From a virus (lineage: Duplodnaviria > Heunggongvirae > Uroviricota > Caudoviricetes): a stretch of 33,089 nt of DNA. Of the stretch, positions 10,087-30,489 are shown in pieces. Every line of letters starts with the position of its first letter. The first letter of the stretch is position 1. The notes under the pieces are model-generated. The model was not told the origin of the DNA. It did no database searches and saw nothing but the letters and a program-made list of their open reading frames with translations. Made by a program: the position numbers and the translations under genes. The stretch lies in the IMG/VR virus record IMGVR_UViG_2861084961_000005; one strand, given 5' to 3'.

Positions 10087-11114
10087 TCAGCCGTTGTCAG
10101 TGTCCAGTGAGTAGTTTTTAAAGCTGATGACTCCTGACCGAGCCAGCCGTTTATCTCGCGGATCCTGTCCTGTAGCGGGATAAGCTCATTGCGGACAAAG
10201 ACCTTTGCCACTTTCTCAATATCACCAGCGACCCGACGTTCTCCGGCTTGCCGCCATCAACTGAAAGGGGATGCGGTGCGCGTCCAGCAGGTCAGCGGCG
10301 CTGGCTTTTTTGATATTAAAAAAATCGTCCTTCGTTGCCACTTCACTGAGCGGGATAATTTTAATGCCGTCAGCTTTCCCCTGCGGGGCATAGAGAAACA
10401 GGTTTTTAAAGTTGTTGCGGCTTTCGACTTGACCATGTTTTCGCGGAGCATTTCGATATCGTTGCGATCCTGCACGGCATCGGTGACGTACATGATGTAT
10501 CCGGCATGTGCGCCGTTTTCGTAATACTTGCGGCGGAACAGCGTGGCCGACTCATTCAGCCAGGCAGAGTTAAGGGCGCTGAGATATTCCGGCAGGCCGT
10601 ACAGTTCCTGATTAATATCCGGCTCCAGCAGATGAAACACGGAGCCGGGCGCGAAAGGTGTCGGCTCGTTGAAGGACGGCACCCACCAGTAAACATCCTC
10701 CTCCACGCACGGCGGGTATATTTTGCCGGTGAGGTTTCCAGTCTGATGACCTTACCGGTGGTGCTGTAACGCTTTTCCAGAAACGCATTACCGAACACCA
10801 GAAAATCCAGCACAAAGCGGCTGAAATCCTGCTGGGAAAGCCACGGATGCGGGATAATGTCGAGGCCAGAATATTACGTTTGACGTAAATCGGTGAGCTG
10901 TGATGCACGGCAGCACGCAGGCTTTTTGCAGACCGGTAAAGCTGACCGGCGGCTCATACCATCTGCCGTTACTGATGCACTCGACGTAATCCAGAATGTC
11001 ACGGCGGTCGAGTACCGGCACCGGCTCACCAAAGGTGAATGCCTCCATTTTCGGGGCGCTGGCGGTCATTGTTTTTGCCGCAGGTTGCGGTGTTTTCCCT
11101 TTTTTCTTGCTCAT
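10087..11114 (-). CDS. Q: Portal protein (P2 gpQ family); reading frame interrupted several times
   Basis: N-terminus MSKKKGKTPQPAAK... from ATG 11114; portal segments continue in ORFs 10612..10908, 10556..10813, 10257..10706 and 9864..10211, each in a different frame; stop TGA at 10089..10087 in the frame carrying the recalled P2 Q C-terminus. Confidence 0.85.
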
Positions 11115-12882
11115 CAGTAAAACTCCAGAATGGTGGATGTCAGCGGGGTGCTGATACCGGCGGTGAGTGGCTCATTTAACAGGGCGTGCATGGTCGCCCA
11201 GGCGAGGTCGGCGTGGCTGGCTTCCTCGCTGCGGCTGGCCTCATAGGTGGCGCTGCGTCCGCTGCTGGTCATGGTCTTGCGGATAGCCATAAACGAGCTG
11301 GTGATGTCGGTGGCGCTGACGTCATATTCCAGACAGCCACGGCGGATAACGTCTTTTGCCTGAGCACCATTGCGGTTTTCATTTCCGGCGTGTAGCGGAT
11401 ATCGCGCGCGGCGGGATAGAACGAGCGCACGAGCTGGAACACGCCGACACCGAGGCCGGTGGCATCAATACCGATGTATTCAACGTTATATTTTTCGGTG
11501 AGTTTGCGGATGGATTCCGCCTGGGTGGCAAAGTCCATGCCTTTCCACTGGTGACGCTCAAGTATTCTGAATTTGCCACCGGCCACCACCGGCGGTGCCA
11601 GCACCACGCATCCGGCGCTGTCGCCACGGTGTGACGGGTCGTAACCAATCCATACCGGGCGGGAGCCGAACGGATTGGCGGCAAATGGTGCATAGTCTTC
11701 CCATTCTTCCAGCGTGTCGACCATGCAGCGTTGCAGCTCCTCGAACGGGAACACCGACGCCTTGTCGTCAACAAATTCACACATGAACAGGTTTTTAAAA
11801 TCGTCGGCGCTGTTTTCGCGTTTGAGCTGCTCAATGTCGAACAGCGTGCAGCCGCCTTTCAGGGCGTCCTCAATGGTGACAATCTGCCGCCACTGGCCGT
11901 CCGCACAGAGAAGACCTCCGGCAAGGGCGTTATGACTGACGTCGATTTCCACGCGTTCGGCGGCGCTGGCGCGTCCCCGGTTAAACAGTTCACCCGACCA
12001 GAACGGGTAGGCGTCGTGCGCCAGCGTGGACGGGGTGGAGAAATAGGTCGAACGCAGGTGACTCTGTGAGGCCATACCTGATGCACCTTACGCAGTACCT
12101 GAAAATTCGGGATCCAGAAAATCTCGTCGACGTACAGGTCGCCGTTATGGCTCTGTGCGGTGTTGGAGTTGGTGCCGAGAAAATCAGTTTTGCGCCGTTA
12201 TTGCCCAGGACAATCGGGTCACCGGTCAGGTCAACGTCAACCAGCCGGGCAAAGGCGATGATGTATTCGCGGAACACATACGCCTGCGTTTTACTGGCCG
12301 ACAGAAAAATCTGGTTATGACCGGTTTTCAGGGCGCGCAGCAGCGCCTCGCGGGAAAAATAAAACGTCGCGCCAATCTGGCGGGATTTCAGGATATCGCG
12401 GATGCGGTGCTCAAGCCCGGCGCGATACCAGTGCAACTGATATTCGAAAGACTGCTCAAAGAAAATCTGCTCCAGCTTTTCGATGGCTTCGTCACTGAAA
12501 AAATTCTTTTTCGGTTTGCGACGCCAGCCTTTGTTGCGGTTAGCGATGTTCGGATTAAGGTCTGCCTCGTTGCCGGTCTGGCTGTAACGGTTGACCCGTG
12601 CCAGTCGTTCAATCTGGCGTCCCAGCAGGTCAATTTCCTTGAAGTCCCCGCCGGTTTTCTGCGGTTTGATGATGAGCTGGGTCAGCCGCGCTTCCAGACT
12701 CATTTCGACACGGCTGATGGGGGCAACGCTGTCCCAGCCGTCGCGCTGTTTCCAGCTCTGCACCGTCGGGCGTTTCATCTGCAACATGGCGGCAATCTGC
12801 GGCACGGAAATCCCTGCCAGTACAGCAGCGCCGCCTGACGACGCGGGTCGTGTAAAAGAGTGGTGTCTGTGGTGATGGTCAT
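11114..12882 (-). CDS. P: Terminase large (ATPase) subunit (P2 gpP family); reading frame interrupted
   Basis: ATG 12882..12880 gives MTITTDTTLLHDPRRQAALL...; bulk in ORFs 11990..12907 and 11269..12075 in different frames; stop TGA 11116..11114 overlaps the Q start. Confidence 0.85.
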
Positions 12883-13055
12883 GAATACCTCGCCGTAATG
12901 AATACACGGCAAGGCTACTGAGTCGCGTCCCGCGATTCGCTAAGGTGCTGTTGTGTCAGTGATAAGCCATCCGGGACTGATGGCGGAGGATGCGCATCGT
13001 CGGGAAACTGATGCCGACATGTGACTCCTCTAATCACTATTCAGGACTCCTGACA
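12883..13055. promoter_or_regulatory. Divergent late-promoter region between P/Q (leftward) and O-N-M-L (rightward)
   Basis: Non-coding gap between divergently oriented operons; no Ogr-type dyad could be pinned down by eye. Confidence 0.35.
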
Positions 13056-13905
13056 ATGGCAAAAAAGTCTCAAAATTCTTTCGTATCGGCGTTGAGGGTG
13101 ACACCTGTGACGGGCGTGTCATCAGTGCGCAGGATATTCAGGAAATGGCCGAAACTTTGACCCGCGTGTCTATGGTTGCCGTATTAACCTGGAACATCTG
13201 CGCGGCATCCTGCCTGACGGTATTTTTAAACGTTATGGTGATGTGGCCGAACTGAAGGCCGAAAAGATTGACGATGATTCGGCGCTGAAAGGCAAATGGG
13301 CGCTGTTTGCGAAAATCACCCCGACCGATGACCTTATCGCGATGAACAAGGCCGCGCAGAAGGTCTATACCTCAATGGAAATTCAGCCGAACTTTGCCAA
13401 CACCGGCAAATGTTATCTGGTGGGGCTGGCCGTCACCGATGACCCGGCAAGCCTCGGCACGGAATACCTGGAATTCTGCCGCACGGCAAAACACAACCCC
13501 CTGAACCGCTTCAAATTAAGCCCTGAAACCTGATTTCAGTGGCAACGCCTGTTGAGCTGGAATTTGAAGACCTGCCTGAAACGTGTTCACCGCCCTGACC
13601 GAAAAGGTGAAGTCCATTTTGGCCGCAAACAGGCCAGCGATGATGCCCGTCTGAATGACGTGCATGACGCGGTGACCGCTGTTGCTGAACATGTGCAGGA
13701 AAAACTGAGCGCCACTGAGCAGCGCCTCGCTGAGATGGAAACCGCCTTTTCCGCACTTAAGCAGGAGGTGACTGACAGGGCGGATGAAACCAGCCAGGCA
13801 TTCACCCGCCTGAAAAACAGTCTCGACCACACCGAAAGTCTGACCCAGCAGCGCCGCAGCAAGGCCACCGGTGGTGGCGGTGACGCCCTGATGACGAACT
13901 GCTGA
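13056..13905 (+). CDS. O: Capsid scaffolding protein (P2 gpO family); reading frame interrupted
   Basis: ATG 13056 (MAKK...); body split between ORFs 13243..13533 and 13552..13905 in different frames; first break at the A-run 13061..13066. Confidence 0.85.
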
Positions 13906-13963: not shown

Positions 13964-15036
13964 ATGCGCCAGGAAACCCGCTTTAAATTTAATGCCTACC
14001 TGTCCCGTGTTGCCGAACTGAACGGCATCGACGCCGGTGATGTGTCGAAAAAATTCACCGTTGAACCGTCGGTCACCCAGACCCTGATGAACACCATGCA
14101 GGAGTCCTCTGACTTTCTGACCCGCATCAATATTGTGCCGGTCAGCGAAATGAAAGGGGAAAAATTGGCATCGGTGTCACCGGCTCCATCGCCAGCACCA
14201 CCGACACCGCCGGGGGCACCGAGCGTCAGCCGAAGGACTTCTCGAAGCTGGCGTCTAACAAGTACGAATGCGACCAGATTAACTTCGATTTTTATATCCG
14301 CTACAAAACGCTGGACCTGTGGGCGCGTTATCAGGATTTCCAGCTCCGTATCCGTAACGCCATTATCAAACGCCAGTCCCTTGATTTCATCATGGCCGGT
14401 TTTAACGGCGTGAAGCGTGCAGAAACCTCTGACCGCAGCAGCAATCCGATGCTGCAGGATGTGGCGGTCGGCTGGCTGCAGAAATACCGCAATGAAGCCC
14501 CGGCGCGCGTGATGAGCAAGGTCACTGACGAGGAAGGTCGCACCACCTCTGAGGTCATCCGCGTGGGTAAGGGCGGTGATTATGCCAGCCTTGATGCACT
14601 GGTGATGGATGCGACCAACAACCTGATTGAACCGTGGTATCAGGAAGACCCTGACCTTGTGGTGATTGTGGGACGTCAGTTACTGGCGGACAAGTATTTC
14701 CCCATCGTCAACAGGGAGCAGGACAACAGCGAAATGCTGGCCGCTGACGTCATCATCAGCCAGAAACGCATCGGTAACCTGCCGGCGGTACGCGTCCCGT
14801 ACTTCCCGGCGGATGCGATGCTCATCACAAAGCTGGAAAACCTGTCCATCTACTACATGGATGACAGCCATCGCCGCGTGATTGAGGAAAACCCGAAACT
14901 CGACCGCGTGGAGAACTACGAGTCAATGAACATTGATTACGTGGTGGAAGACTACGCCGCCGGTTGTCTGGTGGAAAAAATTAAGGTCGGTGATTTCTCC
15001 ACGCTGGCTAAAGCGACCGCAGAGCCGGGAGCGTAA
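13964..15036 (+). CDS. N: Major capsid protein (P2 gpN family); one frame break
   Basis: N-terminal 66 aa in ORF 13964..14413, then the protein continues in the next frame through ORF 14392..15036; junction at A-run 14160..14164. Confidence 0.9.
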
Positions 15037-15039
15037 CCG

Positions 15040-15782
15040 ATGACGAGTCCCGCACAGCGCCACATGATGCGGGTCTCGGCAGCGATGACCGCGCAGCGGG
15101 AAGCCGCCCCGCTGCGACATGCAACTGTCTATGAGCAGATGCTGGTCAAGCTGGCCGCAGACCAGCGCACACTGAAAGCGATTTATTCAAAAGAGCTGAA
15201 GGCCGCGAAAAAGCGCGAACTGCTGCCGTTCTGGTTGCCGTGGGTGAACGGCGTGCTGGAGCAGGGCAAAGGTGCACAGGATGACATTCTGATGACGGTC
15301 ATGCTGTGGCGTCTGGATACCGGCGATATTGCCGGTGCGCTGGAGATTGCCCGTTATGCCCTGAAGTATGGTCTGACCATGCCGGGGAAACACCGCCGCA
15401 CCCCGCCGTACATGTTCACCGAGGAGGTGGCGCTCGCGGCCATGCGCGCTCATGCTGCCGGTGAGTCTGTGGATACCCGCCTGCTGACGGAGACCCTTGA
15501 ACTGACCGCCGTTGCTGACATGCCTGATGAAGTGCGCGCAAAGCTGCACAAAATCACCGGTCTGTTTCTGCGTGACGGTGGAGATGCCGCCGGTGCGCTG
15601 GCTCACCTGCAACGTGCGACACAGCTCGACTGTCAGGCAGGCGTCAAAAAGAGATTGAACGACTGGAGCGGGAGCTGAAACCGAAGCCGGAGCCGCAGCC
15701 AAAAGCGGCCACCCGCGCCCCGAGTAAGACCCGGAGCGTGACACCGGCAAAACGTGGACGCCCGAAAAAGAAAGCCAGTTAA
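15040..15782 (+). CDS. M: Terminase small (endonuclease) subunit (P2 gpM family); one frame break near the 3' end
   Basis: ORF 15040..15678 then basic C-terminal tail ...KPKPEPQPKAATRAPSK...KKKAS in the next frame ending TAA 15780..15782; junction at A-run 15646..15650. Confidence 0.85.
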
Positions 15783-15881: not shown

Positions 15882-16388
15882 ATGATGACGCTGATTATTC
15901 CGCGAAAGGAGGCTCCCGTGTCCGGTGAGGGTACGGTGGTCATCCCGCAACCGGCAGGCGACGAGCCGGTGATTAAAACACGTTCTTTTTTCCCGATATC
16001 GACCCGAAGCGCGTCCGGGAACGTATGCGCCTTGAGCAGACCGTCGCCCCTGCCCGTCTGCGTGAGGCCATCAAGTCAGGCATGGCGGAGACGAATGCGG
16101 AGCTGTACGAGTACCGCGAACAGAAAATTGCTGCCGGTTTACGCGTCTGGCGGACGTCCCGGCGGACGACATCGACGGTGAAAGCATCAAAGTTTTTTAC
16201 TACGAGCGCGCCGTGTGTGCGATGGCGACCGCGTCGCTTTATGAGCGTTACCGCGGCGTGGATGCCAGTGCGAAAGGCGACAAGAAGGCTGACAGCATTG
16301 ACAGCACCATTGATGAACTGTGGCGGGATATGCGCTGGGCGGTGGCGCGTATCCAGGACAAGCCGCGCTGCATCGTGAGTCAAATCTG
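15882..16388 (+). CDS. L: Head completion protein (P2 gpL family); reading frame interrupted
   Basis: ATG 15882 (MMTLIIPRKEAPVSGEG...); continues in ORF 16025..16378 frame (MRLEQTVAPARLREAIKSGMAETNAELYEY...) and ends ...RCIVSQI-stop at 16386..16388. Confidence 0.8.
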
Positions 16389-16592
16389 ATGAAGACCTTT
16401 GCGCTACAGGGCGACACGCTCGACGCCATTTGTGTCCGGTATTACGGGCGCACTGAGGGCGTGGTCGAAGCCGTGCTCGCCGCAAATCCGGGACTGGCTG
16501 AACTGGGTGCGGTGCTGCCACACGGCACCGCCGTCGAACTGCCCGACGTTCAGACCGCGCCCGTGGCTGAAACTGTCAATCTGTGGGAGTAA
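16389..16592 (+). CDS. X: Tail protein X (LysM-like)
   Basis: 67 aa MKTFALQGDTLDAICVRYYG... from ATG 16389; position after L as in P2. Confidence 0.8.
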   Translation: MKTFALQGDTLDAICVRYYGRTEGVVEAVLAANPGLAELGAVLPHGTAVELPDVQTAPVAETVNLWE

Positions 16593-16595: not shown

Positions 16596-16877
16596 ATGAC
16601 AGCAGAAGAAAAAAGCGTCCTGTCGCTTTTCATGATTGGGGTGCTGATTGTTGTCGGCAAGGTGCTTGCCGGTGGTGAACCCATCACCCCGCGTCTGTTT
16701 ATCGGACGCATGTTGCTCGGTGGTTTTGTCTCGATGGTTGCCGGTGTTGTTCTGGTGCAGTTTCCTGACCTGTCACTGCCTGCGGTGTGCGGCATCGGCT
16801 CCATGCTGGGTATCGCCGGTTATCAGGTGATTGAGATTGCCATTCAGCGTCGCTTTAAGGGCAGGGGGAAACAGTAA
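16596..16877 (+). CDS. Y: Holin (P2 gpY family)
   Basis: 93 aa with hydrophobic transmembrane stretches and a basic C-terminus; immediately precedes the endolysin. Confidence 0.8.
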   Translation: MTAEEKSVLSLFMIGVLIVVGKVLAGGEPITPRLFIGRMLLGGFVSMVAGVVLVQFPDLSLPAVCGIGSMLGIAGYQVIEIAIQRRFKGRGKQ

Positions 16878-17373
16878 TGCCGGTAATTAACACGCATCAG
16901 AATATCGCCGCCTTTCTCGACATGCTGGCGGTATCCGAAGGGACGGCGAATCATCCGCTGACGAAAAACCGTGGCTATGACGTGATAGTCACCGGACTGG
17001 ACGGGAAGCCGGAAATTTTCACCGACTACAGTGACCACCCGTTCGCACATGGCCGACCGGCGAAGGTGTTTAACCGTCGCGGTGAAAATCCACGGCCTCC
17101 GGTCGCTATCAGCAGCTTTACCTGTTCTGGCCGCACTACCGCAAACAGCTTGCCCTGCCGGATTTCAGTCCGTTGTCACAGGACAGACTCGCCATTCAGT
17201 TGATCCGCGAACGCGGTGCACTGGATGACATCCGGGCGGGACGCATTGAGCGCGCCATTTCACGCTGTCGCAATATCTGGGCGTCCCTGCCGGGTGCCGG
17301 TTACGGTCAGCGTGAGCATTCACTGGAAAAACTGGTCACCGTCTGGCGTACCGCCGGCGGCGTACCGGCTTAA
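16877..17373 (+). CDS. K: Endolysin (P2 gpK family); one frame break
   Basis: ORF 16877..17203 joined to ORF 17173..17373 in another frame; junction at A-run 17085..17088. Confidence 0.85.
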
Positions 17374-17387: not shown

Positions 17388-17726
17388 ATGAAGAAATTAT
17401 CCCTTTCACTGATGCTGAACGTGTCGCTGGCGCTGATGCTGGCACTGTCCCTGATTTACCCGCAGAGCGTGGCCGTCAGTTTTGTCGCTGCCTGGGCGAT
17501 TCTGGCGACGGTTATCTGTGTGGTTGCCGGTGGTGTCGGCGTGTATGCCACTGAGTATGTGCTGGAACGCTACGGGCGGGAGCTGCCGCCGGAATCGCTG
17601 GCCGTGAAGATTGTCACGGCGCTGTTTTTGCAGCCGGTGCCGTGGCGCAGACGGGCGGCGGCTCTGGTGGTGATGGTGGCGACATTTATCTCGCTGGTCG
17701 CCGCCGGGTGGATTTTACCGCGCTGA
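17388..17726 (+). CDS. lysA: Lysis timing membrane protein (P2 LysA-like)
   Basis: 112 aa, strongly hydrophobic, directly after K. Confidence 0.7.
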   Translation: MKKLSLSLMLNVSLALMLALSLIYPQSVAVSFVAAWAILATVICVVAGGVGVYATEYVLERYGRELPPESLAVKIVTALFLQPVPWRRRAAALVVMVATFISLVAAGWILPR

Positions 17727-17799
17727 TTTATCTCGTGGCGTCGGTGTTCTTCCGGCTGATACGTACGGCCTGCCGTCAGCGTTTTGAGGGGCGGGAACC

Positions 17800-18243
17800 A
17801 TGTCAAAGCTGATGACGGTGCTGGTTGTGTTGTTATCACTGGCGGTGGCCGGTCTGTTTCTGGTGAAACATAAAAATGCCAGCCTGCGCGCCTCGCTGGA
17901 CAGGGCGAACAGTGTCGCCAGTGAACAGCAGGCGACCATCACCATGCTGAAAAATCAGCTTCATGTTGCGCTCACCAGGGCAGACAAAAACGAGCTGGCG
18001 CAGGTGGCTCTGCGTCAGGAACTGGAGAACGCCGCGAAGCGTGAAGCACAGCGCGAGAAAACCATCACGAGGTTACTTAATGAAAACGAAGATTTTCGCC
18101 GCTGGTACGGCGCTGACCTGCCTGATGCTGTGCGCCGGTTGCACCAGCGCCCCGCCTGCACCGACGCCAGTGATTGTCCACAACGCCTGCCCGAAAGTGA
18201 GTCTTTGCCCGATGCCGGGCAGCGACCCGGAGACGAACGGTGA
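17800..18243 (+). CDS. lysB: Inner-membrane spanin component (P2 LysB / Rz-like)
   Basis: N-terminal transmembrane helix, then a charged coiled-coil-like region; canonical position. Confidence 0.7.
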   Translation: MSKLMTVLVVLLSLAVAGLFLVKHKNASLRASLDRANSVASEQQATITMLKNQLHVALTRADKNELAQVALRQELENAAKREAQREKTITRLLNENEDFRRWYGADLPDAVRRLHQRPACTDASDCPQRLPESESLPDAGQRPGDER

Positions 18244-19311: not shown

Positions 19312-19946
19312 ATGAACACTCTCGCAAATATTCAGGAACTCGCGCGCGCACTGCGCAACATGATCCGCACCGGCATTATCGTCGAAACCGACCTTAACGC
19401 CGGTCGCTGCCGTGTGCAGACCGGCGGCATGTGCACCGACTGGCTTCAGTGGCTGACCCATCGCGCCGGACGTTCGCGCACATGGTGGGCACCTTCCGTG
19501 GGGGAACAGGTGCTGATTCTGGCCGTGGGCGGTGAACTCGACACGGCGTTCGTTCTGCCGGGGATTTATTCCGGCGATAACCCCGCGCCGTCTACGTCGG
19601 CGGATGCCCTGCATATCCGTTTCCCTGACGGGGCGGTGATTGAGTATGAACCCGAAACCAGTGCACTCACGGTAAGCGGAATTAAAACGGCCAGCGTGAC
19701 GGCTTCTGATTCTGTTACTGCCACGGTGCCGGTGGTCATGGTGAAAGCGTCAACCCGCATCACCTGGACACCCCGGAGGTGGTCTGCACCAACAGACTGA
19801 TTACCGGCACGCTGGAAGTGCAGAAGGGCGGGACGATGCGCGGCAACATTAAACATACCGGCGGTGAACTCTCATCAAACGGTAAGGTACTGCATACCCA
19901 TAAACACCCCGGCGACAGCGGCGGCACAACCGGGAGTCCTCTATGA
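19312..19946 (+). CDS. V: Baseplate assembly protein (P2 gpV family); one frame break near the 3' end
   Basis: ORF 19312..19800, then continues in the next frame to ...GSPL-stop at 19944..19946, which overlaps the W start; junction near 19761..19765. Confidence 0.85.
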
Positions 19947-20290
19947 CAGCGCGTTATCTTGGAATGAATCGCAGTGATGGCCTGACTGTCACTGACCTTG
20001 AGCATATCAGCCAGAGTATCGGCGATATCCTGCGCACGCCGGTCGGCTCACGGGTGATGCGTCGTGATTACGGCTCATTGCTGGCGTCAATGATTGACCA
20101 GCCGCAGACCCCGGCGCTTGAGTTGCAGATTAAGGTCGCCTGTTACATGGCGGTGCTGAAATGGGAACCCCGCGTCACCCTGTCATCCGTCACCACTGAG
20201 CGCAGTTTTGACGGGCGAATGACGGTCACGTTAACCGGTCAGCACAACGACACCGGCCAGCCACTTTCGTTAACCATCCCTGTGAGTTGA
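19943..20290 (+). CDS. W: Baseplate protein (P2 gpW family)
   Basis: 115-aa intact ORF. Confidence 0.85.
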   Translation: MTARYLGMNRSDGLTVTDLEHISQSIGDILRTPVGSRVMRRDYGSLLASMIDQPQTPALELQIKVACYMAVLKWEPRVTLSSVTTERSFDGRMTVTLTGQHNDTGQPLSLTIPVS

Positions 20291-20294: not shown

Positions 20295-21203
20295 ATGCCG
20301 ATTATCGACCTGAACCAGCTACCCGCACCGGATGTGGTCGAGGAGCTGGACTTTGAAACCATTCTTGCCGAACGCAAGGCGACACTGATTTCCCTTTACC
20401 CGGAAGACCAGCAGGAGGCGGTTGCCCGTACCCTGACGCTGGAATCCGAGCCTCTCGTCAAACTGCTGGAGGAAAATGCTTATCGTGAGCTTATCTGGCG
20501 TCAGCGTGTGAATGAGGCCGCACGGGCGGTAATGCTGGTCTGTGCCGCCGGTAATGACCTTGATGTGATTGGTGCCAATTACAACACCACGCGCCTGATT
20601 ATCACCCCGGCAGATGATTCGACCATCCCGCCGACACCGGCAGTGATGGAGTCTGACACCGATTATCGTCTGCGTATTCAGCAGGCGTTTGAGGGCTTAA
20701 GCGTCGCCGGGTCGGTGGGAGCCTATCAGTATCATGGTCGCAGTGCCGACGGGCGTGTCGCGGATATTTCTGTCACCAGTCCGTCTCCGGCCTGCGTCAC
20801 CATCTCTGTGCTGTCACGTGAAAATAACGGTGTGGCATCCGAAGACCTGCTGGCGGTGGTGCGCAACGCCCTTAATGGTGAGGACGTCAGACCGGTGGCC
20901 GACCGTGTGACCGTGCAGTCTGCCGTCATCGTTGAATACCAGATAAATGCCACGCTTTACCTTTATCCTGGCCCCGAAAGCGAACCCATTCGCGCTGCCG
21001 CCGTGAAAAAATTGGAAGCGTATATCACGGCACAGCACCGGCTGGGGCGCGACATCCGACTGTCTGCCATTTATGCCGCTTTGCATGTGGAAGGCGTGCA
21101 GCGTGTCGAACTGGCTGCACCGCTGGCCGACATCGTGCTCAACAATACGCAGGCGTCTTTCTGTACCGAATACAGCGTCGTGACCGGAGGCTCGGATGAG
21201 TGA
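20295..21203 (+). CDS. J: Baseplate protein (P2 gpJ family)
   Basis: 302-aa intact ORF. Confidence 0.85.
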   Translation: MPIIDLNQLPAPDVVEELDFETILAERKATLISLYPEDQQEAVARTLTLESEPLVKLLEENAYRELIWRQRVNEAARAVMLVCAAGNDLDVIGANYNTTRLIITPADDSTIPPTPAVMESDTDYRLRIQQAFEGLSVAGSVGAYQYHGRSADGRVADISVTSPSPACVTISVLSRENNGVASEDLLAVVRNALNGEDVRPVADRVTVQSAVIVEYQINATLYLYPGPESEPIRAAAVKKLEAYITAQHRLGRDIRLSAIYAALHVEGVQRVELAAPLADIVLNNTQASFCTEYSVVTGGSDE

Positions 21204-21807
21204 TTCGCGACTGCTGCCGACCGGCTCATCACCGCTTGAAGTCGCTGCCGCAAAAGCCTGTGCGGAAATTGAAAAAACGCCGGTCAGTATTCGTAAGCTG
21301 TGGAACCCGGACACCTGCCCGGCAAATCTGCTGCCGTGGCTGGCGTGGTCATTTTCGGTTGACCGCTGGGATGATAAGTGGCCGGAAGCGACAAAACGCG
21401 CTGTTATCCGCGATGCGTATTTCATTCACTGCCATAAGGGCACTATAGGCGCAATCCGGCGTGTGGTGGAGCCGCTCGGCTATCTGATTGAGGTGAGGGA
21501 GTGGTGGCAGCTCAACGAGGAGCCGGGGACGTTCCGCATCGTTGTTGGCGTGCTTGAGCAGGGTATTACCGAGGAAATGTATCAGGAGCTGGAGCGCCTC
21601 GTTACTGATGCAAAACCGGCAAGCCGCCATCTGACGGGACTGGCTATCAGTTTAAGTACAACCGGCAACATTTTTGCCGGTGCGGGATGCTATCACGGCG
21701 ACGCCCTGACGGTTTATCCCTACACCCCGGAGGCCATTATTGTCGGAGGGGATTATTTCCCGGCCTCGGCCATTCATTTAATTGATAACCTGAGAGTAAA
21801 CGCATGA
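21196..21807 (+). CDS. I: Baseplate protein (P2 gpI family)
   Basis: 203-aa ORF overlapping the J stop and the H start. Confidence 0.8.
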   Translation: MSDSRLLPTGSSPLEVAAAKACAEIEKTPVSIRKLWNPDTCPANLLPWLAWSFSVDRWDDKWPEATKRAVIRDAYFIHCHKGTIGAIRRVVEPLGYLIEVREWWQLNEEPGTFRIVVGVLEQGITEEMYQELERLVTDAKPASRHLTGLAISLSTTGNIFAGAGCYHGDALTVYPYTPEAIIVGGDYFPASAIHLIDNLRVNA

Positions 21808-23309
21808 CAGTGAAATACTACGCCATTCTGACTAATCAGGGCGCGGCACGGCTGGCTAACGCGACGATGCTCGGCAGTAAGCTGAATCTGACGCAAATGG
21901 CCGTTGGTGATGCGAATGGTGTCTTGCCGACACCAGACCCGGCACAGACAAAACTGATTAATCAGAAACGCATTGCACCGCTGAATCTTCTGAGTGTTGA
22001 CCCGAACAACCAGAGCCAGATTATTGCGGAGCAAATCATCCCTGAGAACGAGGGCGGATTCTGGATCCGTGAGATTGGGCTTTATGATGATGAAGGCGTA
22101 CTCATTGCGGTGGCGAACTGCCCGGAAACGTACAAACCGCAGTTGCAGGAAGGCAGTGGTCGTACCCAGACTATCCGCATGATTCTGGTTGTCACGAATA
22201 CCGAAGCTATTACGCTGAAAATCGACCCATCGGTGGTACTGGCGACCCGTAAATACGTGGATGATGAAGTCCTGGAATTAAGGCTGTATGTGGATGAACA
22301 GATGAGAAACCACATTGCCGCACAGGATCCTCATACCCAGTATGCACAGAAACATAATCCGACATTTACCGGAGAACCAAAAGCGCCGACGCCTGCCGCA
22401 GGAAATAACACCACGCGGATTGCGACCACTGAGTTTGTTCAGGCCGCTATTACCGCTCTGATTAACGGTGCGCCAGCCACGCTGGACACACTGAAAGAAA
22501 TTGCCGCAGCCATTAACAATGACCCGAAATTCAGCACCACCATTAACAATGCGCTGGCACTGAAAGCTCCGCTGTCGAGTCCCGCACTTACCGGAACGCC
22601 AACAGCACCTACTGCGGCACAGTCGGTCAACAATACACAGATTGCCACCACGGCTTTTGTGAAATCAGCAATTGCGGCAATGGTGGGTTCTGCCCCTGCG
22701 GCACTGGATACACTGAATGAACTGGCGGCGGCGCTGGGGAATGACCCTAACTTTTCAACAACAGTGCTTAATGCACTGGCAGGCAAACAACCGCTGGACA
22801 ATACGCTGACTAATTTGAGTGGAAAGGATGTTGCTGGTCTTCTCGCATACCTTGGTTTGGGAGAAGGTGCTCCAGCTATTGGCGTTCCGTTCTTCTGGCC
22901 GTCCGCTGCAATGCCAAATACTGTAATCGACAGCTGGTCCAGTATGGTGTTTTTGAAGTTCAACGGGGCGAAATTTTCTGCCTCTGATTACCCTGTGCTG
23001 GCGAAAGTGTTTCCTTCACTGGTATTACCTGAAGCCCGCGGTGATTTCATTCGTATCTGGGATGACGGGCGAGGTGCCGATGGTGGTCGCGAATTATTAA
23101 GCTGGCAGGAAGCTACAAACTTTTCTCAGTTTGCCGGGAATATAGGCGGAGGTGCGGGACACGCAATTAACTTTCATGATGGCATCGCCGGAAATCAGCC
23201 AGGATTTTCACGATTTAATTTCACCAGTAACTCTGTGGGTGATGGTGTGAATTTTGTTGCTGTCAGACCGCGAAATATTGCATTTAACTTTCTGGTGAGG
23301 GCTAAATAA
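21804..23309 (+). CDS. H: Tail fibre protein (P2 gpH family); C-terminal 148 aa lie inside the invertible segment
   Basis: 501 aa; internal tandem duplication of an approximately 55-aa unit; the left invertase crossover site is embedded at codons ...LLAYLGLGEG. Confidence 0.85.
   Translation: MTVKYYAILTNQGAARLANATMLGSKLNLTQMAVGDANGVLPTPDPAQTKLINQKRIAPLNLLSVDPNNQSQIIAEQIIPENEGGFWIREIGLYDDEGVLIAVANCPETYKPQLQEGSGRTQTIRMILVVTNTEAITLKIDPSVVLATRKYVDDEVLELRLYVDEQMRNHIAAQDPHTQYAQKHNPTFTGEPKAPTPAAGNNTTRIATTEFVQAAITALINGAPATLDTLKEIAAAINNDPKFSTTINNALALKAPLSSPALTGTPTAPTAAQSVNNTQIATTAFVKSAIAAMVGSAPAALDTLNELAAALGNDPNFSTTVLNALAGKQPLDNTLTNLSGKDVAGLLAYLGLGEGAPAIGVPFFWPSAAMPNTVIDSWSSMVFLKFNGAKFSASDYPVLAKVFPSLVLPEARGDFIRIWDDGRGADGGRELLSWQEATNFSQFAGNIGGGAGHAINFHDGIAGNQPGFSRFNFTSNSVGDGVNFVAVRPRNIAFNFLVRAK
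22840..22865. repeat. Left crossover site of the invertible segment (gix/pix-like 26-mer)
   Basis: TTCTCGCATACC-TT-GGTTTGGGAGAA; its right half is the exact reverse complement of the left half of the site at 24623..24648. Confidence 0.6.
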
Positions 23310-23902
23310 TGAAACCTGTTTTTGATGAAAATGGGCTGGCTACAGTGCCGGGCGATATGCGTTGTTTTTATTATGATGCTGAAACATCTGAGTATACGGG
23401 CTGGTCTGATGAATATATTAATACTGGCGTAAGTATGCCCGCCTGTTCCACTGGTATTGACCCGGGCGAATACATTCCGGGGAAAGTGGCAGTATTTACG
23501 GGTAAGGGATGGAGCCATGAAGAAGACCACCGCAATGAGACTGTTTACTCAATCGAAAATGGCGCAGCTGTTACAGTGGATTATATCGGTGCCATCAAAG
23601 ACGGTTATGTCACGCTTTCACCGTTAACGCCATACGATAAATGGGATGGTGAGAAATGGGTGACAGATACTGAGGCACAGCATAGCGCCGCAGTAGATGC
23701 AGCAGAAGCACAGCGCCAGTCGCTGATTGATACTGCAATGGCTTCCATCAGTCTGATTCAACTGAAATTGCAGGCCGGACGTAAACTGACGCAGGCAGAA
23801 ACCACCCGACTTAACGCTGTGCTGGATTACATTGACGCGGTGACGGCAACAGATACCAGCACCGCGCCGGATGTCATCTGGCCTGAACTGCCGGAGGCGT
23901 AG
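23309..23902 (+). CDS. G: Tail fibre assembly chaperone (P2 gpG / Tfa)
   Basis: 197-aa ORF directly after H; C-terminus ...[15 protein letters not shown] resembles the C-terminus of the oppositely oriented copy. Confidence 0.8.
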   Translation: MKPVFDENGLATVPGDMRCFYYDAETSEYTGWSDEYINTGVSMPACSTGIDPGEYIPGKVAVFTGKGWSHEEDHRNETVYSIENGAAVTVDYIGAIKDGYVTLSPLTPYDKWDGEKWVTDTEAQHSAAVDAAEAQRQSLIDTAMASISLIQLKLQAGRKLTQAETTRLNAVLDYIDAVTATDTSTAPDVIWPELPEA

Positions 23903-24332
23903 GCCATTCAATATCTGGCGCACTGGAGGTATCAACCAGTTCCAGTGCGTTCAGATAATCCAGCCACAAATTATATTGCGCCAGTTCCTCACCATTCAGA
24001 CGACCAATAGCCGCTTTACCAGGCCATTGTTTACTGTTCATGTATTCGTTGGCATGGTTAATCAATAATTGCCTCTCTGATTCGGCCTGTTCAATAAGTT
24101 CCTCATGTGATGGTGGAGGTATTTCAACCCATGCAGGATTGCCATAACCGTCCGACCCTCTGATTTTTCCAGTCGGCGGGAATCCTAAAAACTCGGTTGC
24201 ATCCTCCTCGCTAATATCAGTGAATGTGGCGATTTCATCTTCGCTCAATTTATAATCGGAAATTGACGCGGCAGGATAGAATAATGCATTCTTTGGATCA
24301 AATTTATACATTTCAATCACCCCGCTATCCAT
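23874..24332 (-). CDS. Alternative tail fibre assembly chaperone (Tfa'), inverted orientation
   Basis: 152-aa minus-strand ORF ending ...[17 protein letters not shown], parallel to the gpG C-terminus. Confidence 0.75.
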
Positions 24333-24622
24333 CTGTATGCGACTGGCATACTTCCAACCTGTGAAACAGAAAACCCCTGCCTCGATTTTCGCAACACATT
24401 TACGGCCCCTTTATTTGCTCCTGTATCTGCTGCACAAACGATAACTTCGAAATCGTCATACGGAAATGGTATCGGGAATAAAATGTTAGTTTGACTTGAT
24501 GTCATAGCAAATCCCCGCTGTATTATTCTCCCCGACGGGTCTCTATTCCATCCTGTCCCAGATGTCCATTCTGACATACTAGGTATCTGATTTTCCCCTG
24601 TTCCCACATTCCGTTTTGCCGC
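24317..24622 (-). other. Alternative tail fibre C-terminal coding segment, currently unfused (would join H after inversion)
   Basis: Minus-strand frame reads ...[18 protein letters not shown]... starting inside the right crossover site, mirroring ...LGLGE-GAPAIG... at the H junction; no start of its own. Confidence 0.65.
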
Positions 24623-24648
24623 TTCTCCCAAACCAACGTTTATGAAAA
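24623..24648. repeat. Right crossover site of the invertible segment
   Basis: TTCTCCCAAACC-AA-CGTTTATGAAAA: two 12-bp half sites around a 2-bp core, the same architecture as Gin/Hin sites. Confidence 0.6.
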
Positions 24649-24702
24649 TGCAGAGATAACGGGCAAGTGGCATCATCTCCGGTTTTTATTCAGGGGATGC
24701 TC

Positions 24703-25294
24703 ATGCTTATTGGCTATGTACGCGTGTCAACAAATGACCAGAACACGGAATTGCAGCGTAACGCGCTGGAGTGCGCAGGATGTGAGCTGATTTTTGAGGA
24801 TAAAATCAGCGGCACGAAGTCCGACAGGCCGGGGCTGAAAAACTGCTCAGAACATTATCGGAAGGTGACACTCTGGTTGTCTGGAAGCTGGACCGGCTGG
24901 GGCGTAGTATGCGGCATCTGGTCATTCTGGTTGAGGAGCTGCGCGAACGCGGCATTAATTTTCGCAGCCTGACGGATGCCATTGATACCAGTACGCCGAT
25001 GGGGCGTTTTTCTTTCATGTGATGGGTGCCCTGGCTGAAATGGAACGAGAGCTCATTGTCGAGCGGACTCGGGCCGGGCTGGAAGCGGCCAGAGCCAAAG
25101 GTCGTATTGGTGGCAGACGTCCTAAACTCACCGCGAGTGAGTGGGAGCAGGCCGGGCGTTTGCTGGCTGCAGGGGAGTCACGTCAACGCGTGGCACTGAT
25201 TTTTGATATTGGTCTGTCCACGCTCTATAAAAAATTTCCCTCATCAGCGACAAAGAATAAATTGTGTCATCCCTTAGCCAACCGGGACAAATAG
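24703..25294 (+). CDS. Serine recombinase, DNA invertase (Gin/Pin/Hin family); two frame breaks
   Basis: [22 protein letters not shown] (catalytic Ser region) in ORF 24667..24972; C-terminal HTH part in ORF 25019..25294; the middle segment ...[17 protein letters not shown]... is in a third frame; breaks at A-run 24838..24842 and T-run 25007..25011. Confidence 0.85.
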
Positions 25295-25353: not shown

Positions 25354-26543
25354 ATGAGTGACTATCATCACGGCGTGCAGGTGCTGGAGATTAACGACGG
25401 CACCCGCGTCATTTCCACCGTATCCACTGCCATTGTCGGCATGGTCTGCACGGCCAGCGATGCGGATGCGGAAACCTTCCCCCTCAATAAACCGGTGCTG
25501 ATTACCAATGTGCAGAGCGCAATTGCAAAGGCCGGTAAAAAAGGCACGCTGGCGGCATCGTTGCAGGCCATCGCCGACCAGTCAAAACCGGTCACCGTTG
25601 TCGTGCGTGTGGAAGACGGCACCGGCGACGACGAGGAAACGAAACTCGCGCAGACCGTTTCCAATATCATCGGCACCACCGACGAAAACGGGCAGTACAC
25701 CGGACTGAAAGCCCTGCTGGCGGCGGAGTCGGTAACCGGTGTTAAACCGCGTATTCTCGGCGTGCCGGGACTGGACACCAAAGAGGTGGCTGTTGCACTG
25801 GCATCAGTCTGTCAGAAGCTGCGCGCTTTCGGGTATATCAGCGCATGGGGCTGTAAAACTATTTCCGAGGTGAAAGCCTACCGCCAGAATTTCAGCCAGC
25901 GTGAGTTGATGGTCATCTGGCCGGATTTCCTCGCATGGGATACGGTCACCAGTACCACCGCCACCGCGTATGCCACCGCCCGTGCGCTGGGTCTGCGCGC
26001 TAAAATCGACCAGGAGCAGGGCTGGCATAAAACACTGTCCAACGTTGGGGTGAACGGTGTTACCGGCATCAGCGCATCTGTATTCTGGGATTTGCAGGAG
26101 TCCGGCACCGATGCTGACCTGCTGAATGAGTCAGGCGTCACAACGCTGATTCGCCGTGACGGTTTCCGCTTCTGGGTAACCGTACCTGCTCTGATGACCC
26201 GCTGTTCCTCTTTGAAAACTACACCCGCACCGCGCAGGTGCTGGCCGACACGATGGCTGAGGCGCACATGTGGGCGGTGGACAAGCCCATCACCGCAACG
26301 CTGATTCGCGACATCGTTGACGGCATCAATGCCAAATTTCGTGAGCTGAAAACAAACGGCTATATCGTGGATGCGACCTGCTGGTTCAGCGAAGAATCCA
26401 ACGATGCGGAAACCCTCAAGGCCGGAAAACTGTATATCGACTACGACTATACCCCGGTGCCTCCTCTCGAAAACCTGACCCTGCGCCAGCGTATCACCGA
26501 TAAATATCTGGCAAATCTGGTCACCTCGGTTAACAGCAATTAA
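25354..26543 (+). CDS. FI: Tail sheath protein (P2 gpFI family); one frame break
   Basis: ORF 25354..26304 continues in ORF 26238..26543 frame; junction at G-run 26174..26176. Confidence 0.9.
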
Positions 26544-27130: not shown

Positions 27131-27406
27131 ATGAACAAAGAAAATGTGATTACCCTGGACAATCCGGTCAAGCGTGGTGAGCAGGTTATCGAACAGGTCA
27201 CGCTGATGAAACCCAATGCCGGGACGCTGCGCGGTGTCAGTCTGGCTGCGGTCGCAAACTCCGAAGTCGATGCACTGATTAAGGTGCTGCCGCGCATGAC
27301 GGCACCGATGCTGACCGAACAGGAGGTCGCCGAGCTGGAACTGCCTGACCTTGTGGCGCTGGCCGGTAAGGTGGTCGGTTTTTTGTCGCCGAACTCGGTG
27401 CAGTGA
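27131..27406 (+). CDS. E: Tail assembly chaperone (P2 gpE)
   Basis: 91-aa ORF; contains the slippery run T6G at 27379..27385 near its 3' end. Confidence 0.85.
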   Translation: MNKENVITLDNPVKRGEQVIEQVTLMKPNAGTLRGVSLAAVANSEVDALIKVLPRMTAPMLTEQEVAELELPDLVALAGKVVGFLSPNSVQ

Positions 27407-27558
27407 CGTTTCCGAAAAATCTCTCGGTCGATGACCTGATGGCGGATGTGGCAGTGATATTTCACTGGCCGCCATCAGAACTGTATCCCATGAGCCTGAC
27501 CGAACTCATCACATGGCGCGAAAAGGCGCTCCGGCGAAGCGGAAACACGAATGAGTAA
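27131..27558 (+). CDS. Tail assembly chaperone E+E' made by programmed -1 ribosomal frameshift
   Basis: -1 frame from the T-run is open to TAA 27556..27558 (...FFVAELGAVTFPKNLSVDDLMADVAVIFHWPPSELYPMSLTELITWREKALRRSGNTNE), overlapping the T start; same arrangement as lambda G/GT and P2 E/E'. Confidence 0.7.
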
Positions 27559-29996
27559 CAATGTAAAATTACAGGTATTGCTCAGGGCTGTTGACCAGGC
27601 ATCCCGCCCGTTTAAATCCATCCGCACAGCGAGTAAGTCGCTGTCGGGGGATATCCGGGAAACACAAAAATCACTGCGCGAGCTGAACGGTCACGCATCC
27701 CGTATTGAGGGATTCCGCAAGACCAGTGCACAGCTCGCCGTGACTGGTCATGCACTTGAAAAGGCTCGGCAGGAAGCCGAAGCCCTTGCCACACAGTTTA
27801 AAAACACCGAACGTCCGACCCGTGCTCAGGCGAAAGTGCTGGAATCCGCAAAGCGTGCGGCGGAGGACTTACAGGCGAAATATAACCGCCTGACGGATTC
27901 CGTTAAACGCCAGCAGCGGGAACTGGCCGCTGTGGGAATTAATACCCGCAATCTTGCACATGATGAGCAGGGACTGAAAAACCGTATCAGTGAAACCACC
28001 GCACAGCTTAACCGTCAGCGCGACGCGCTGGCGCGTGTCAGTGCGCAACAGGCAAAACTTAACGCAGTCAAACAGCGTTATCAGGCCGGAAAGGAGCTGG
28101 CCGGAAATATGGTCTCGGTGGGCGCTGCCGGTGTGGGGATTGCTGCTGCGGGAACGATGGCCGGAGTTAAGCTGCTGATGCCCGGTTATGAGTTTGCGCA
28201 GAAAAACTCAGAATTGCAGGCTGTGCTGGGAGTGGCAAAAGACTCCGCCGAAATGACCGCACTCCGCAAGCAGGCGCGCCAGCTCGGCGACAATACCGCC
28301 GCCTCGGCAGATGATGCAGCCGGTGCACAGATTATCATTGCGAAAGCCGGTGGGGATGTTGATGCCATTCAGGCGGCAACGCCGGTCACGCTGAATATGG
28401 CGCTGGCGAACCGCCGCACGATGGAAGAAAACGCCGCCCTGCTGATGGGGATGAAATCCGCCTTTCAGCTTTCAAACGATAAGGTCGCTCATATCGGGGA
28501 TGTTCTCTCCATGACGATGAACAAAACCGCCGCCGATTTTGACGGCATGAGCGATGCGCTGACCTATGCCGCACCTGTGGCAAAAAATGCCGGTGTCAGC
28601 ATTGAAGAAACCGCCGCAATGGTCGGGGCGCTGCATGATGCAAAATCACAGGCTCAATGGCGGGGACGGGAAGCCGTGCCGTGTTAAGCCGCCTGCAGGC
28701 ACCGACGGGAAAAGCATGGGATGCACTCAAAGAGCTTGGCGTGAAAACCTCAGACAGCAAGGGAAACACCCGGCCAATATTTACCATTCTGAAAGAAATG
28801 CAGGCCAGTTTTGAGAAAAACCGGCTCGGTACTGCCCAGCAGGCTGAATACATGAAAACCATTTTCGGGGAGGAGGCCAGCTCAGCCGCCGCTGTGCTGA
28901 TGACTGCCGCCTCAACCGGAAAGCTGGACAAACTGACCGCTGCGTTTAAAGCCTCAGACGGGAAGACCGCAGAGCTGGTAAATATCATGCAGGACAACCT
29001 CGGCGGTGACTTTAAGGAGTTTCAGTCCGCTTATGAGGCGGTGGGGACTGACCTGTTTGACCAGCAGGAAGGCGCACTGCGTAATCTCACGCAGACGGCC
29101 ACAAAGTATGTGTTAAAACTCGACGGCTGGATCCAGAAAACAAATCACTGGCGTCAACCATCGGCATCATTGTCGGTGGTGCACTGGCACTGATTGGTGT
29201 CATCGGTGCCATTGGCCTCGTAGCCTGGCCGGTTATCACCGGCATCAATGCCATCATCGCGGCAGCAGGCGCAATGGGGGCAATCTTCACGACGGTTGGC
29301 AGTGCTGTTATAACCGCCATCGGGGCGATTAGCTGGCCGGTTGTGGCCGTGGTGGCCGCCATTGTCGCCGGGGCGTTGCTTATCCGTAAATACTGGGAGC
29401 CTGTCAGCGCATTCTTTGGCGGTGTGGTGGAAGGGCTGAAAGCGGCATTTGCGCCGGTGGGGGAACTGTTCACGCCACTTAAACCGGTGTTTGACTGGCT
29501 GGGTGAAAAGTTACAGGCCGCGTGGCAGTGGTTTAAAAACCTGATTGCCCCGGTCAAAGCCACCCAGGACACCCTGAACCGTTGCCGTGACACGGGCGTC
29601 ATGTTCGGGCAGGCACTGGCTGACGCGCTGATGCTGCCGCTTAATGCGTTCAACAAACTGCGCAGTGGTATTGACTGGGTACTGGAAAAACTCGGTGTTA
29701 TCAACAAAGAGTCAGACACACTTGACCAGACCGCCGCCAGAACTCAAGCCGCCACGTATGGCAGCGGTGGTTATATTCCGGCGACCAGCTCTTATGCAGG
29801 TTATCAGGCTTATCAGCCGGTCACGGCACCGGCTGGCCGCTCTTATGTAGACCAGAGTAAAAACGAATATCACATCAGCCTGACGGGTGGTACTGCGCCG
29901 GGGACACAGCTCGACCGCCAGTTACAGGATGCGCTCGAAAAATACGAGCGGGATAAACGTGCGCGCGCCCGTGCCAGCATGATGCATGACGGTTAA
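27551..29996 (+). CDS. T: Tail tape measure protein (P2 gpT family); reading frame interrupted at least twice
   Basis: Three consecutive ORFs 27551..28687, 28657..29193 and 29274..29996 in different frames, Ala/Gly-rich with a hydrophobic segment; first junction at AA 28656..28657. Confidence 0.85.
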
Positions 29997-30010
29997 GGAG
30001 GTGACGAAAA

Positions 30011-30489
30011 ATGATGCTCGCGTTAGGTATGTTTGTTTTTATGCGCCAGACGCTGCCACACCAGACCATGCAGCGTGAATCAGATTATCGCTGGCCGTCA
30101 AATTCCCGTATCGGCAAACGGGATGCCTTTCAGTTTCTCGGTGTGGGTGAGGAAAACATCACGCTTGCCGGTGTGCTTTATCCCGAACTGACCGGCGGCA
30201 AGCTGACGATGACCACGCTCAGGCTGATGGCAGAGGAGGGGCGGGCGTGGCCGTTGCTGGATGGCACCGGCATGATTTACGGCATGTATGTCATCAGCAA
30301 GGTGAGTGAAACAGGGAGTATTTCTTTGCAGACGGCACACCCCGGAAAATTGATTTTACGCTGTCGCTCACCCGCGTTGATGAATCACTGGCCGCGCTTT
30401 ATGGCGATATCGGTAAACAGGCGGAATCGCTCATCGGTAAGGCTGGCAGTATGGCGACTAAATTCACGGGTATGACGGGGGCGGGATAA
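30011..30489 (+). CDS. U: Tail protein (P2 gpU family); one frame break
   Basis: ORF 30011..30475, then C-terminus ...GKAGSMATKFTGMTGAG-stop in the next frame ending 30487..30489; junction at T-run 30321..30323. Confidence 0.85.

Follow-up and report, generated by a model that had tools for sequence, protein, structure and literature searches.

The gene order of bacteriophage P2 (NC_001895) runs int-C-cox-B-A, then Q-P / O-N-M-L-X-Y-K-lysA-lysB-lysC-R-S, and later V-W-J-I-H-G / FI-FII-E-E'-T-U-D-ogr. Long-read assemblies are known to carry deletion errors in homopolymers of 2–8 nt, mostly of 4–5 nt, with A/T runs favoured (PMC12007338). In mutation-accumulation lines of mismatch-repair-deficient E. 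coli, 30,061 substitutions and 5,324 indels were recorded (PMC8510543). The locus described here follows the P2 gene order, with 94.8–97.4% identity to P2 over the aligned late and replication segments and conservation of the E/E' slippery site. It differs from P2 in having a ParB-like gene, a hypothetical gene and a cytosine methyltransferase gene in place of old/tin, and an invertible tail-fibre segment with a serine invertase in place of fun(Z).

The whole stretch of DNA analysed, called the window below, is the 33,089-nucleotide virus record IMGVR_UViG_2861084961_000005. Its source is GenBank record CP012112.1 of the avian pathogenic E. coli strain PSUO78 (approximately 4,395,119-4,428,207; assembly GCA_002215115.1), a strain named in PMC10740950, PMC13119680 and PMC6506621. 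By sequence comparison, window positions 5040-33089 were 100% identical to CP012112.1 4400158-4428207. P2-like phage records matched the prophage at 96.8% identity over 94% of its span, and it was collinear with the prophages annotated in the closest complete genomes, E. coli E7 and E5. In these two prophages the switch genes int, C repressor and Cox are annotated, as is ogr, with cpxP to the left and fieF to the right. The right boundary was placed at 32042, where the alignment to a prophage located at another chromosomal site ended. Exact-match look-ups of the integrase and gpD proteins found each of them in very many genomes. The general layout was as follows.

1-32042, plus strand: P2-like (Peduovirus) prophage, from the int stop codon to approximately the right phage/host junction, inserted between cpxP and fieF.
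1-8538, no strand: first error-free zone, with int, C-like repressor, cox, B, orf80-83, A (4091-6385) and the ParB-like gene (6582-7757); 0 deletions and 0 substitutions relative to E5.
19765-24692, no strand: second error-free zone, with W, J, I, H, G and the invertible tail-fibre segment; 0 deletions.
22852-24639, no strand: invertible tail-fibre segment, in the opposite orientation to E5 and the same orientation as E7, with imperfect inverted repeats at 22840-22866 and 24622-24648.
27379-27385, plus strand: gpE/E+E' slippery site TTTTTTG, of the same length as in E5 and with no indel; the P2 annotation puts a -1 frameshift site in E.

The inversion of the tail-fibre segment relative to E5 is a natural flip.

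The main reference was E. coli E5 (NZ_CP104521.1), which carries this prophage at the same cpxP/fieF site and was sequenced independently. No mismatch was found over the 31.3 kb collinear alignment, and there was no true substitution in 33 kb. The lone E5 mismatch, at 24637, is an alignment-edge effect: it lies in an inverted-repeat arm at the edge of the alignment, and E7 is identical there in the orientation of the window. A second assembly, GCA_949768845.1, showed 0 mismatches over window positions 11817-33089, with longer runs where it differed. The E7 prophage (NZ_CP104523.1) showed 232 mismatches clustered at 10–20 kb and 25–29 kb; they were rejected as changes in the window, being mosaic differences between prophages that all disappeared with E5 as the reference.

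Against this background of identity, 45 deletion events amounting to 46 nt separated the window from E5, 41 in coding sequences and 4 intergenic. They broke the frame of 15 genes and spanned 8539-32105. In E5, all 15 of these genes are annotated at full length, and the runs were longer at all 45 differing sites. The affected genes and runs were the following.

7760-8711, plus strand: hypothetical gene (318 aa in E5); 5 deletions, at 8539, 8594, 8612, 8682 and 8703, each reducing a 2-mer to 1 or a 3-mer to 2.
8719-9694, minus strand: DNA cytosine methyltransferase gene (327 aa in E5); 7 events, 8 nt, at 8780, 8961, 8990, 9322, 9323, 9432 (AA) and 9453.
9886-9888, no strand: C4→C3, intergenic between the methyltransferase gene and Q.
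10087-11114, minus strand: gpQ portal gene; 7 single-base deletions, at 10131, 10225, 10254, 10421, 10708, 10856 and 10929.
11114-12882, minus strand: gpP large terminase gene; 4 deletions, at 11361, 12084, 12180 and 12808.
13056-13905, plus strand: gpO scaffold gene; 5 deletions, at 13061 (A7→A6, 13061-13066), 13155, 13526, 13582 and 13617.
13964-15036, plus strand: gpN major capsid gene; A6→A5 at 14160-14164, truncated product of 149 aa.
15040-15782, plus strand: gpM small terminase gene; A6→A5 at 15646-15650, product of 212 aa.
15882-16389, plus strand: gpL gene; 2 deletions, A5→A4 at 15975 and T4→T3 at 16138.
16877-17373, plus strand: gpK endolysin gene; A5→A4 at 17085-17088.
17388-17812, plus strand: lysA gene; T5→T4 at 17713-17716.
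19312-19946, plus strand: gpV baseplate spike gene; C3→C2 at 19763-19764, truncated product of 162 aa.
24693-24696, no strand: G5→G4, 7–10 nt upstream of the invertase start codon.
24703-25294, plus strand: serine invertase gene; 2 deletions, A6→A5 at 24838-24842 and T6→T5 at 25007-25011.
25354-26543, plus strand: gpFI tail sheath gene; G4→G3 at 26174-26176, truncated product of 316 aa.
27551-29996, plus strand: gpT tape-measure gene; A5→A4 at 28642-28645 and 29137-29140, truncated product of 378 aa.
30011-30489, plus strand: gpU gene; T4→T3 at 30321-30323, truncated product of 154 aa.
31674-31676, no strand: T4→T3, intergenic between D and ogr.
32099-32105, no strand: T8→T7, in host DNA upstream of fieF and outside the prophage.

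The initial annotation had named twelve genes as broken, and all twelve are: Q (7 events), P (4), O (5), N (1), M (1), L (2), K (1), V (1), the invertase (2), FI (1), T (2) and U (1). Eight of the nine junctions that it had placed were exact single-base shortenings in the alignments to E7 and E5; the ninth, given as AA at 28656-28657, was off by 14 nt, the true event there being the A5→A4 at 28642-28645. The stretch that it had delimited, 10087-30489, is indeed affected, but the true span is larger (8539-32105). It had missed 32 of the 41 coding-sequence events, three broken genes (the hypothetical gene, the cytosine methyltransferase gene and lysA) and the events at 9886, 24693, 31674 and 32099. 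It had warned that automated annotation would fragment the genes. In the GenBank record, protein entries are missing for twelve genes: Q, P, O, N, L, K, lysA, V, the invertase, FI, T and U. For the hypothetical gene at 7760-8711, the deposited annotation is a 264-aa truncated product (gene call L038 2721-3515).

The frame breaks are, with a probability of about 0.95, base-calling or consensus errors in the deposited PSUO78 assembly, and the real PSUO78 prophage most probably has the intact form seen in E5. A sequencing chemistry or a consensus step would have under-counted the bases in single-letter runs, so that one base, once two, would have been lost from 45 runs in the window. All 45 indels relative to E5 were deletions, with 0 insertions. 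All 45 fell in runs of at least two bases, although only 45.6% of the bases lie in such runs (P ~4e-16). The fraction of shortened runs was 0.3% for 2-mers, 0.6% for 3-mers, 2.3% for 4-mers, 6.8% for 5-mers, 12% for 6-mers, 29% for 7-mers and 33% for 8-mers. On the plus strand, C-runs were shortened 13 times and G-runs 4 times, although G-runs are the commoner (1870 versus 1560), a strand asymmetry. The converse explanation, insertions in the reference genomes, was rejected: the genes are annotated as intact there, and the longer runs are common to dozens of loci.

The spatial distribution of the events was very uneven (P<1e-5 in a permutation test of the event positions that kept the run-length classes). 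In the zone 1-8538, 13.4 events were expected and none was observed, a result as extreme as which occurred in 0 of 100,000 permutations. A sharp edge was visible at 8539, from which the density rose to approximately 9.5 events per kilobase, even 2-mers being shortened; this densest zone corresponds to the cytosine methyltransferase region. Further to the right, the density was approximately one event per kilobase. The clustering and its edge fit assembly patches or coverage, and not mutation. We propose that differently supported stretches may have been joined at about 8.5 kb, where well-supported sequence could meet, for example, the end of a long-read contig of low coverage or a patch that filled a gap. 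That 13.4 kb of the window is error-free implies an error process that is not uniform, and this counts against an artefact. Low GC content was rejected as the cause of the pattern on the values found (40% in the densest zone, 45% in the error-free zone 1-8538 and 55–58% in the error-bearing late genes). Uncorrected repeats from a second P2-like prophage were also considered as the source of the error zones; the idea is only weakly supported: the segment 8400-11000 does have a second match in E5, but the segment 13600-19800, which bears errors too, has a single one.

The competing explanation is that the prophage is truly degraded, a cryptic P2-like element whose genes were inactivated by real -1 slippage at single-letter runs; its lineage might have lacked mismatch repair. 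Homopolymers are indeed prone to replication slippage, and long runs are known as indel hot spots in E. coli (PMC8510543). One of the events, the gpM A6→A5, moreover recurs in another data set. Slippage would nevertheless have had to yield 45 indels in the 33 kb of the window and 34 in 42.5 kb of plasmid, with 0 substitutions in either. These 79 indels with no substitution are not a plausible mutation spectrum, because mismatch-repair-deficient lines show approximately 5.6 substitutions per indel (PMC8510543). Fourteen of the 45 events are at 2-mers, which are no slippage hot spots, insertions are lacking, and the edge at 8539 has no mutational explanation. The same pattern was seen in conjugation genes of the plasmid and in conserved host DNA. 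Nor were the shortened runs found in any of the 34 related loci in which they were sought, whereas the full-length run was present in 413 locus-by-site observations. Genuine decay is close to refuted, and we regard it as very improbable. The initial annotation had likewise held that homopolymer sequencing or assembly error, not prophage decay, was responsible, and this is upheld by the 45 homopolymer deletions without a real substitution relative to E5, with which the plasmid pattern, the private nature of the events, the deletion in host DNA and the spatial clustering all agree. The induction by mitomycin C that it had suggested is a poor check, because P2-type repressors are classically not SOS-inducible.

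The gpM event calls for separate treatment. Among 153 billion gene positions searched, no match was found to the truncated products of FI, T, U, N and V, so that five of six truncated products were absent, the exception being gpM. The A5 run recurs, with its 212-aa gpM product, in the Logan contig SRR26804541_18, and it is the only shortened run of the window also present in an independent data set. The contig belongs to a P2-like phage 1.3% divergent from the prophage of the window, and its other late genes are all intact. The A5 length thus exists elsewhere or recurs elsewhere as an error, and the gpM A6→A5 could be real. In a mixed situation nearly all the events would be artefacts and a few would be real alleles, notably the one at 15646-15650, a view favoured by the occurrence of this identical run in a phage with otherwise intact late genes. 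Against it, the E5 prophage has A6 at the site and is otherwise identical to the window base for base, and the full-length run is present in eleven other related loci. The same homopolymer may have been miscalled twice. On balance, real alleles among the events seem unlikely.

The error reading, by which all the breaks arose in the assembly, was examined on a plasmid of the same assembly. Comparison of pPSUO78_1 (CP012113.1) with plasmid p1 of E5 over 42.5 kb showed 34 single-base homopolymer deletions and 0 mismatches, in addition to one in-frame 9-nt insertion. The PSUO78 plasmid record lists no protein for traI, traD and traC; the E5 plasmid has protein annotations for all three. As the plasmid shows the same pattern, the defect is therefore one of the assembly and not of the prophage. 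In the host DNA, a 68-nt query across 32099-32105 was present at a coverage of at least 80% in 4,333 complete E. coli genomes; the T7 version of the window had no exact full-length match among complete E. coli genomes, the best being 69 nt with one gap. The PSUO78 assembly itself was absent from the RefSeq complete-genome collection searched, which is consistent with an artefact and does not demonstrate one. In a third-party table, PSUO78 exceeds genomes of similar size by only about 100 coding sequences; this excess would be surprisingly small if about one error per kilobase held chromosome-wide, and it may count against the artefact explanation. No description of the sequencing method of PSUO78 was found in the literature, papers citing the accession included. 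It is extremely improbable that the run lengths are real in PSUO78, the product of a recent mutational process generating only -1 slippage deletions on the prophage, the plasmid and the nearby host DNA. If they were, they would constitute a mutation spectrum unlike that of any described mutator.

Two further explanations concern the function and the handling of the sequence. An alteration of the window after deposition, such as a synthetic or deliberate mutation of a test sequence, could in principle create a deletion-only pattern without substitutions. The segment 5040-33089 is base-identical to the deposited chromosome, however, the segment 1-5039 contains no events, and the pattern recurs in CP012113.1, a second record of this assembly. 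The idea is refuted for 5040-33089, and its probability is close to negligible. Recoding with a function, whether through programmed ribosomal frameshifting or through slippage in transcription, has in its favour that P2-like phages use one programmed -1 frameshift, at the TTTTTTG of gpE/E+E' (27379-27385). That very site is unchanged in the window, the relatives are in frame at all 45 event sites, several genes have 4–7 events, and many events are at 2-mers unable to support slippage. Recoding is refuted by the comparison with intact relatives, and we give it practically no credence. The predicted programmed -1 site of gpE/E+E' would be the sole genuine frame change in the late region.

With the errors set aside, the prophage of the window is an ordinary P2-like phage, probably intact, and nothing in it is biologically new. 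The value of the finding is practical, a quality warning on a public reference genome. Both CP012112.1 and CP012113.1 bear the label complete, and at least three papers have taken them as references (PMC10740950, PMC13119680, PMC6506621), while false frameshifts reach approximately 1.4 per kilobase in the window and 0.8 per kilobase in the plasmid stretch. Any work that includes the PSUO78 assembly will be distorted in these regions, be it counts of pseudogenes, calls of prophage intactness, the clustering of pangenomes or statistics on gene presence. As a general rule, many indels without substitutions relative to a near-identical independent assembly identify an artefact without reads.

Compared with known cases, the automated annotation of the window superficially resembles that of defective or cryptic P2-like prophages, with many pseudogenes. 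Decayed prophages differ from it: the window is free of large deletions, IS insertions and accompanying substitutions, and its events are not shared with relatives. From the usual errors of long-read or flow-based sequencing, known to fragment genes and inflate pseudogene counts, the window departs by its patchy density (0 to 9.5 per kilobase in 33 kb), its sharp edge and its freedom from substitution-type errors. It resembles them in that deletions dominate and the events are confined to runs of 2–8 nt, and it shares with the long-read assembly profile (PMC12007338) a rate that rises with run length, a greater effect on A/T than on G/C runs, and the fragmentation of genes.

Looking up exact copies of the tail-fibre protein gpH led to the GenBank record CP012112.1 (assembly GCA_002215115.1), which was 100% identical to the window from 11804 to 33089; in a second look-up the identity covered 5040–25678 as well. 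By these identities, the window is CP012112.1 at about 4,395,119–4,428,207, cut at the stop codons of the integrase gene and fieF. The strain is avian pathogenic Escherichia coli PSUO78 (O78:H4, from chicken), with plasmids CP012113.1 and CP012114.1, and the papers naming it do not give the sequencing method (PMC10740950, PMC13119680, PMC6506621). The RefSeq complete-genome set that was searched did not include the assembly, an absence that would fit an exclusion for excess frameshifts. P2-like phage records matched the window at about 97% identity, and the window was collinear with annotated P2-type prophages that complete E. coli genomes carry between cpxP and fieF.

Against the first close reference, E. 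coli E7 (NZ_CP104523.1), 46 indel events were observed. Forty-five of them were deletions in the window, all in homopolymers (one removed two bases, the other 44 a single base), and the sole insertion, a 6-nt repeat unit in gpM, kept the reading frame. The 232 mismatches to E7, grouped in two blocks, were gone when E. coli E5 (NZ_CP104521.1) was chosen as reference after sub-segment searches: the 31.3 kb collinear alignment showed no mismatch and exactly the same 45 deletions. The tail-fibre segment 22852–24639 (1788 nt) was inverted relative to E5. The one mismatch within it (24637) falls in a repeat arm at the alignment edge, where E7, in the same orientation, agrees with the window; the window thus equals the E5 prophage, save for 46 bases missing from 45 runs and a natural inversion made by the phage invertase. 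In the E5 annotation, each gene broken in the window has a full-length protein. Two regions of the element are listed here.

22840–24648, invertible tail-fibre segment including its repeats, flipped relative to E5 and in the E7-like orientation
6582–9694, cargo of three genes between A and Q, differing from the old/tin genes of P2

Imperfect inverted repeats of 27 nt flank the invertible segment, a serine invertase gene follows directly downstream, and the orientation of the segment sets the length of gpH (501 aa in the window and E7, 455 aa in E5). The first cargo gene encodes a ParB-like protein of 391 aa, in which the N-terminal ~160 residues match the PADLOC PD-Lambda-5_A models (partial coverage, E = 3e-19). 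The 318-aa product of the second gene had no hit in PADLOC, and the third gene encodes a C5 cytosine methyltransferase with DruM2 as best PADLOC hit (E = 1e-105). At a site known to vary among P2-like phages, the cargo may form an island for defence or anti-defence.

The initial annotation had described frame breaks in Q, P, O, N, M, L, K, V, the invertase, FI, T and U, between 10087 and 30489. Alignment to the close references showed all twelve genes to be broken, and eight of the nine homopolymer junctions it placed were exactly right; the ninth, at 28656–28657, was misplaced, the true event being in the A-run 28642–28645. The affected span is wider (8539–32105) and takes in three further genes, namely the 318-aa hypothetical gene, the cytosine methyltransferase and lysA, together with four intergenic events. 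The restriction to homopolymers is not due to chance, since all 45 deletions lie in runs of at least two bases, which hold 45.6% of the bases (P about 4e-16). The share of runs shortened climbed steadily with length: 0.3% for 2-mers and about 30% for 7–8-mers.

These breaks had been attributed to sequencing or assembly error rather than to decay of the prophage, an attribution upheld by the mutation spectrum, the plasmid, the host DNA, the relatives, the truncated products, the spatial pattern and the strand asymmetry. Real decay would have to produce 45 indels, all deletions and 14 of them at 2-mers, with no substitution. We know of no more indel-prone background than mismatch-repair-deficient E. 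coli. Mutation-accumulation lines of this type gave 30,061 substitutions and 5324 small indels (PMC8510543), and the window spectrum is not of this kind. Deletion errors of long-read assemblies affect runs of 2–8 nt, most often 4–5, and A/T more than G/C runs (PMC12007338), a profile that the window deletions match. One event (T8 to T7, 32099–32105) falls beyond the prophage, in host DNA; no complete E. coli genome had an exact full-length match to the T7 version, and the best of the 4333 with the stretch were one base longer. Among 34 related loci, no shortened run was seen, against 413 sightings of full-length runs, and none of the truncated FI, T, U, N and V products was found among 153 billion collected gene positions. 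The frame breaks fail the tests of decay, and the fault is one of the assembly rather than of the prophage. Programmed recoding was also considered, and the frame breaks failed its tests.

The distribution of the events showed a sharp edge at 8539, with a density then falling rightward: none were present in 1–8538 (13.4 expected) and 20 in 8539–10960 (4.2 expected; permutation P below 1e-5). On the + strand of 8539–32105, C-runs were shortened 13 times and G-runs 4 times, and G-runs outnumber C-runs on the window + strand (1870 vs 1560). GC content does not account for the pattern, and a second P2-like prophage accounts for part of it at most. We propose that too few bases were counted in runs when the consensus was made. 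The abrupt change at 8539, like the error-free blocks 1–8538 and 19765–24692, would then mark stretches differing in read support, for example where well-supported sequence adjoins a gap-fill patch or a contig end of low coverage.

Over 42.5 kb, the plasmid pPSUO78_1 (CP012113.1) from the same assembly showed no mismatch to the E5 plasmid p1. It had 34 homopolymer deletions of one base each, located in 12876–49035 of the record, plus one in-frame 9-nt insertion. The record lists no protein for traI, traD or traC, although the E5 plasmid has all three annotated, and the tra region has more unannotated gaps. This record is no more reliable than the chromosome window. The C/G asymmetry of the window had no counterpart in the plasmid (9 C vs 6 G).

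In the case of the shortened gpM run (A6 to A5, 15646–15650), the A5 form and its 212-aa product recur in the Logan contig SRR26804541_18 (5783–5787), so that this is a genuine but rare allele or else a run miscalled more than once. This contig carries a clearly different P2-like phage, 1.3% divergent from that of the window, with its other late genes intact. E5 has A6 at this site and matched the window at every other base; that the deletion is real in PSUO78 seems rather unlikely. The only non-homopolymer length differences in window and plasmid were in-frame repeat-unit changes: the AGCCGC unit of gpM (15691–15696), present in the window and E5 and missing from E7, and a 9-nt CGGCTGTTG unit at 27531–27539 of the plasmid, in the stretch corresponding to traD. 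Both look like genuine polymorphisms.

Other public records showed peculiarities. In the chromosome records of both E5 and E7, position 1 is the first base of gene A, the replication gene of the prophage (window about 4091); automated rotation of the circular assemblies probably mistook this phage gene for a replicon start gene. In KC618326.1 (‘Escherichia phage P2’, O157:H43 strain T22), the large terminase is given as two overlapping CDSs (10013–11398 and 11358–11786 of the record), which may be another frameshift error. A related prophage in GCA_028597675.1 lacks gene calls for O, S, T and fieF and has cdh in two pieces; with 33 gap openings against the window, this assembly looks indel-prone too.

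In these regions the public ‘complete’ PSUO78 genome cannot be relied on base by base, and a comparison that turns up indels and no substitutions settles cases of this kind without reads. The underlying prophage biology holds nothing novel. The element is a standard P2-like phage, sharing the P2 gene order, with a lineage-specific cargo and the slippery site TTTTTTG of gpE/E+E' conserved at 27379–27385. Its frame breaks are homopolymer indel errors of the well-known kind that fragments genes in error-prone assemblies.
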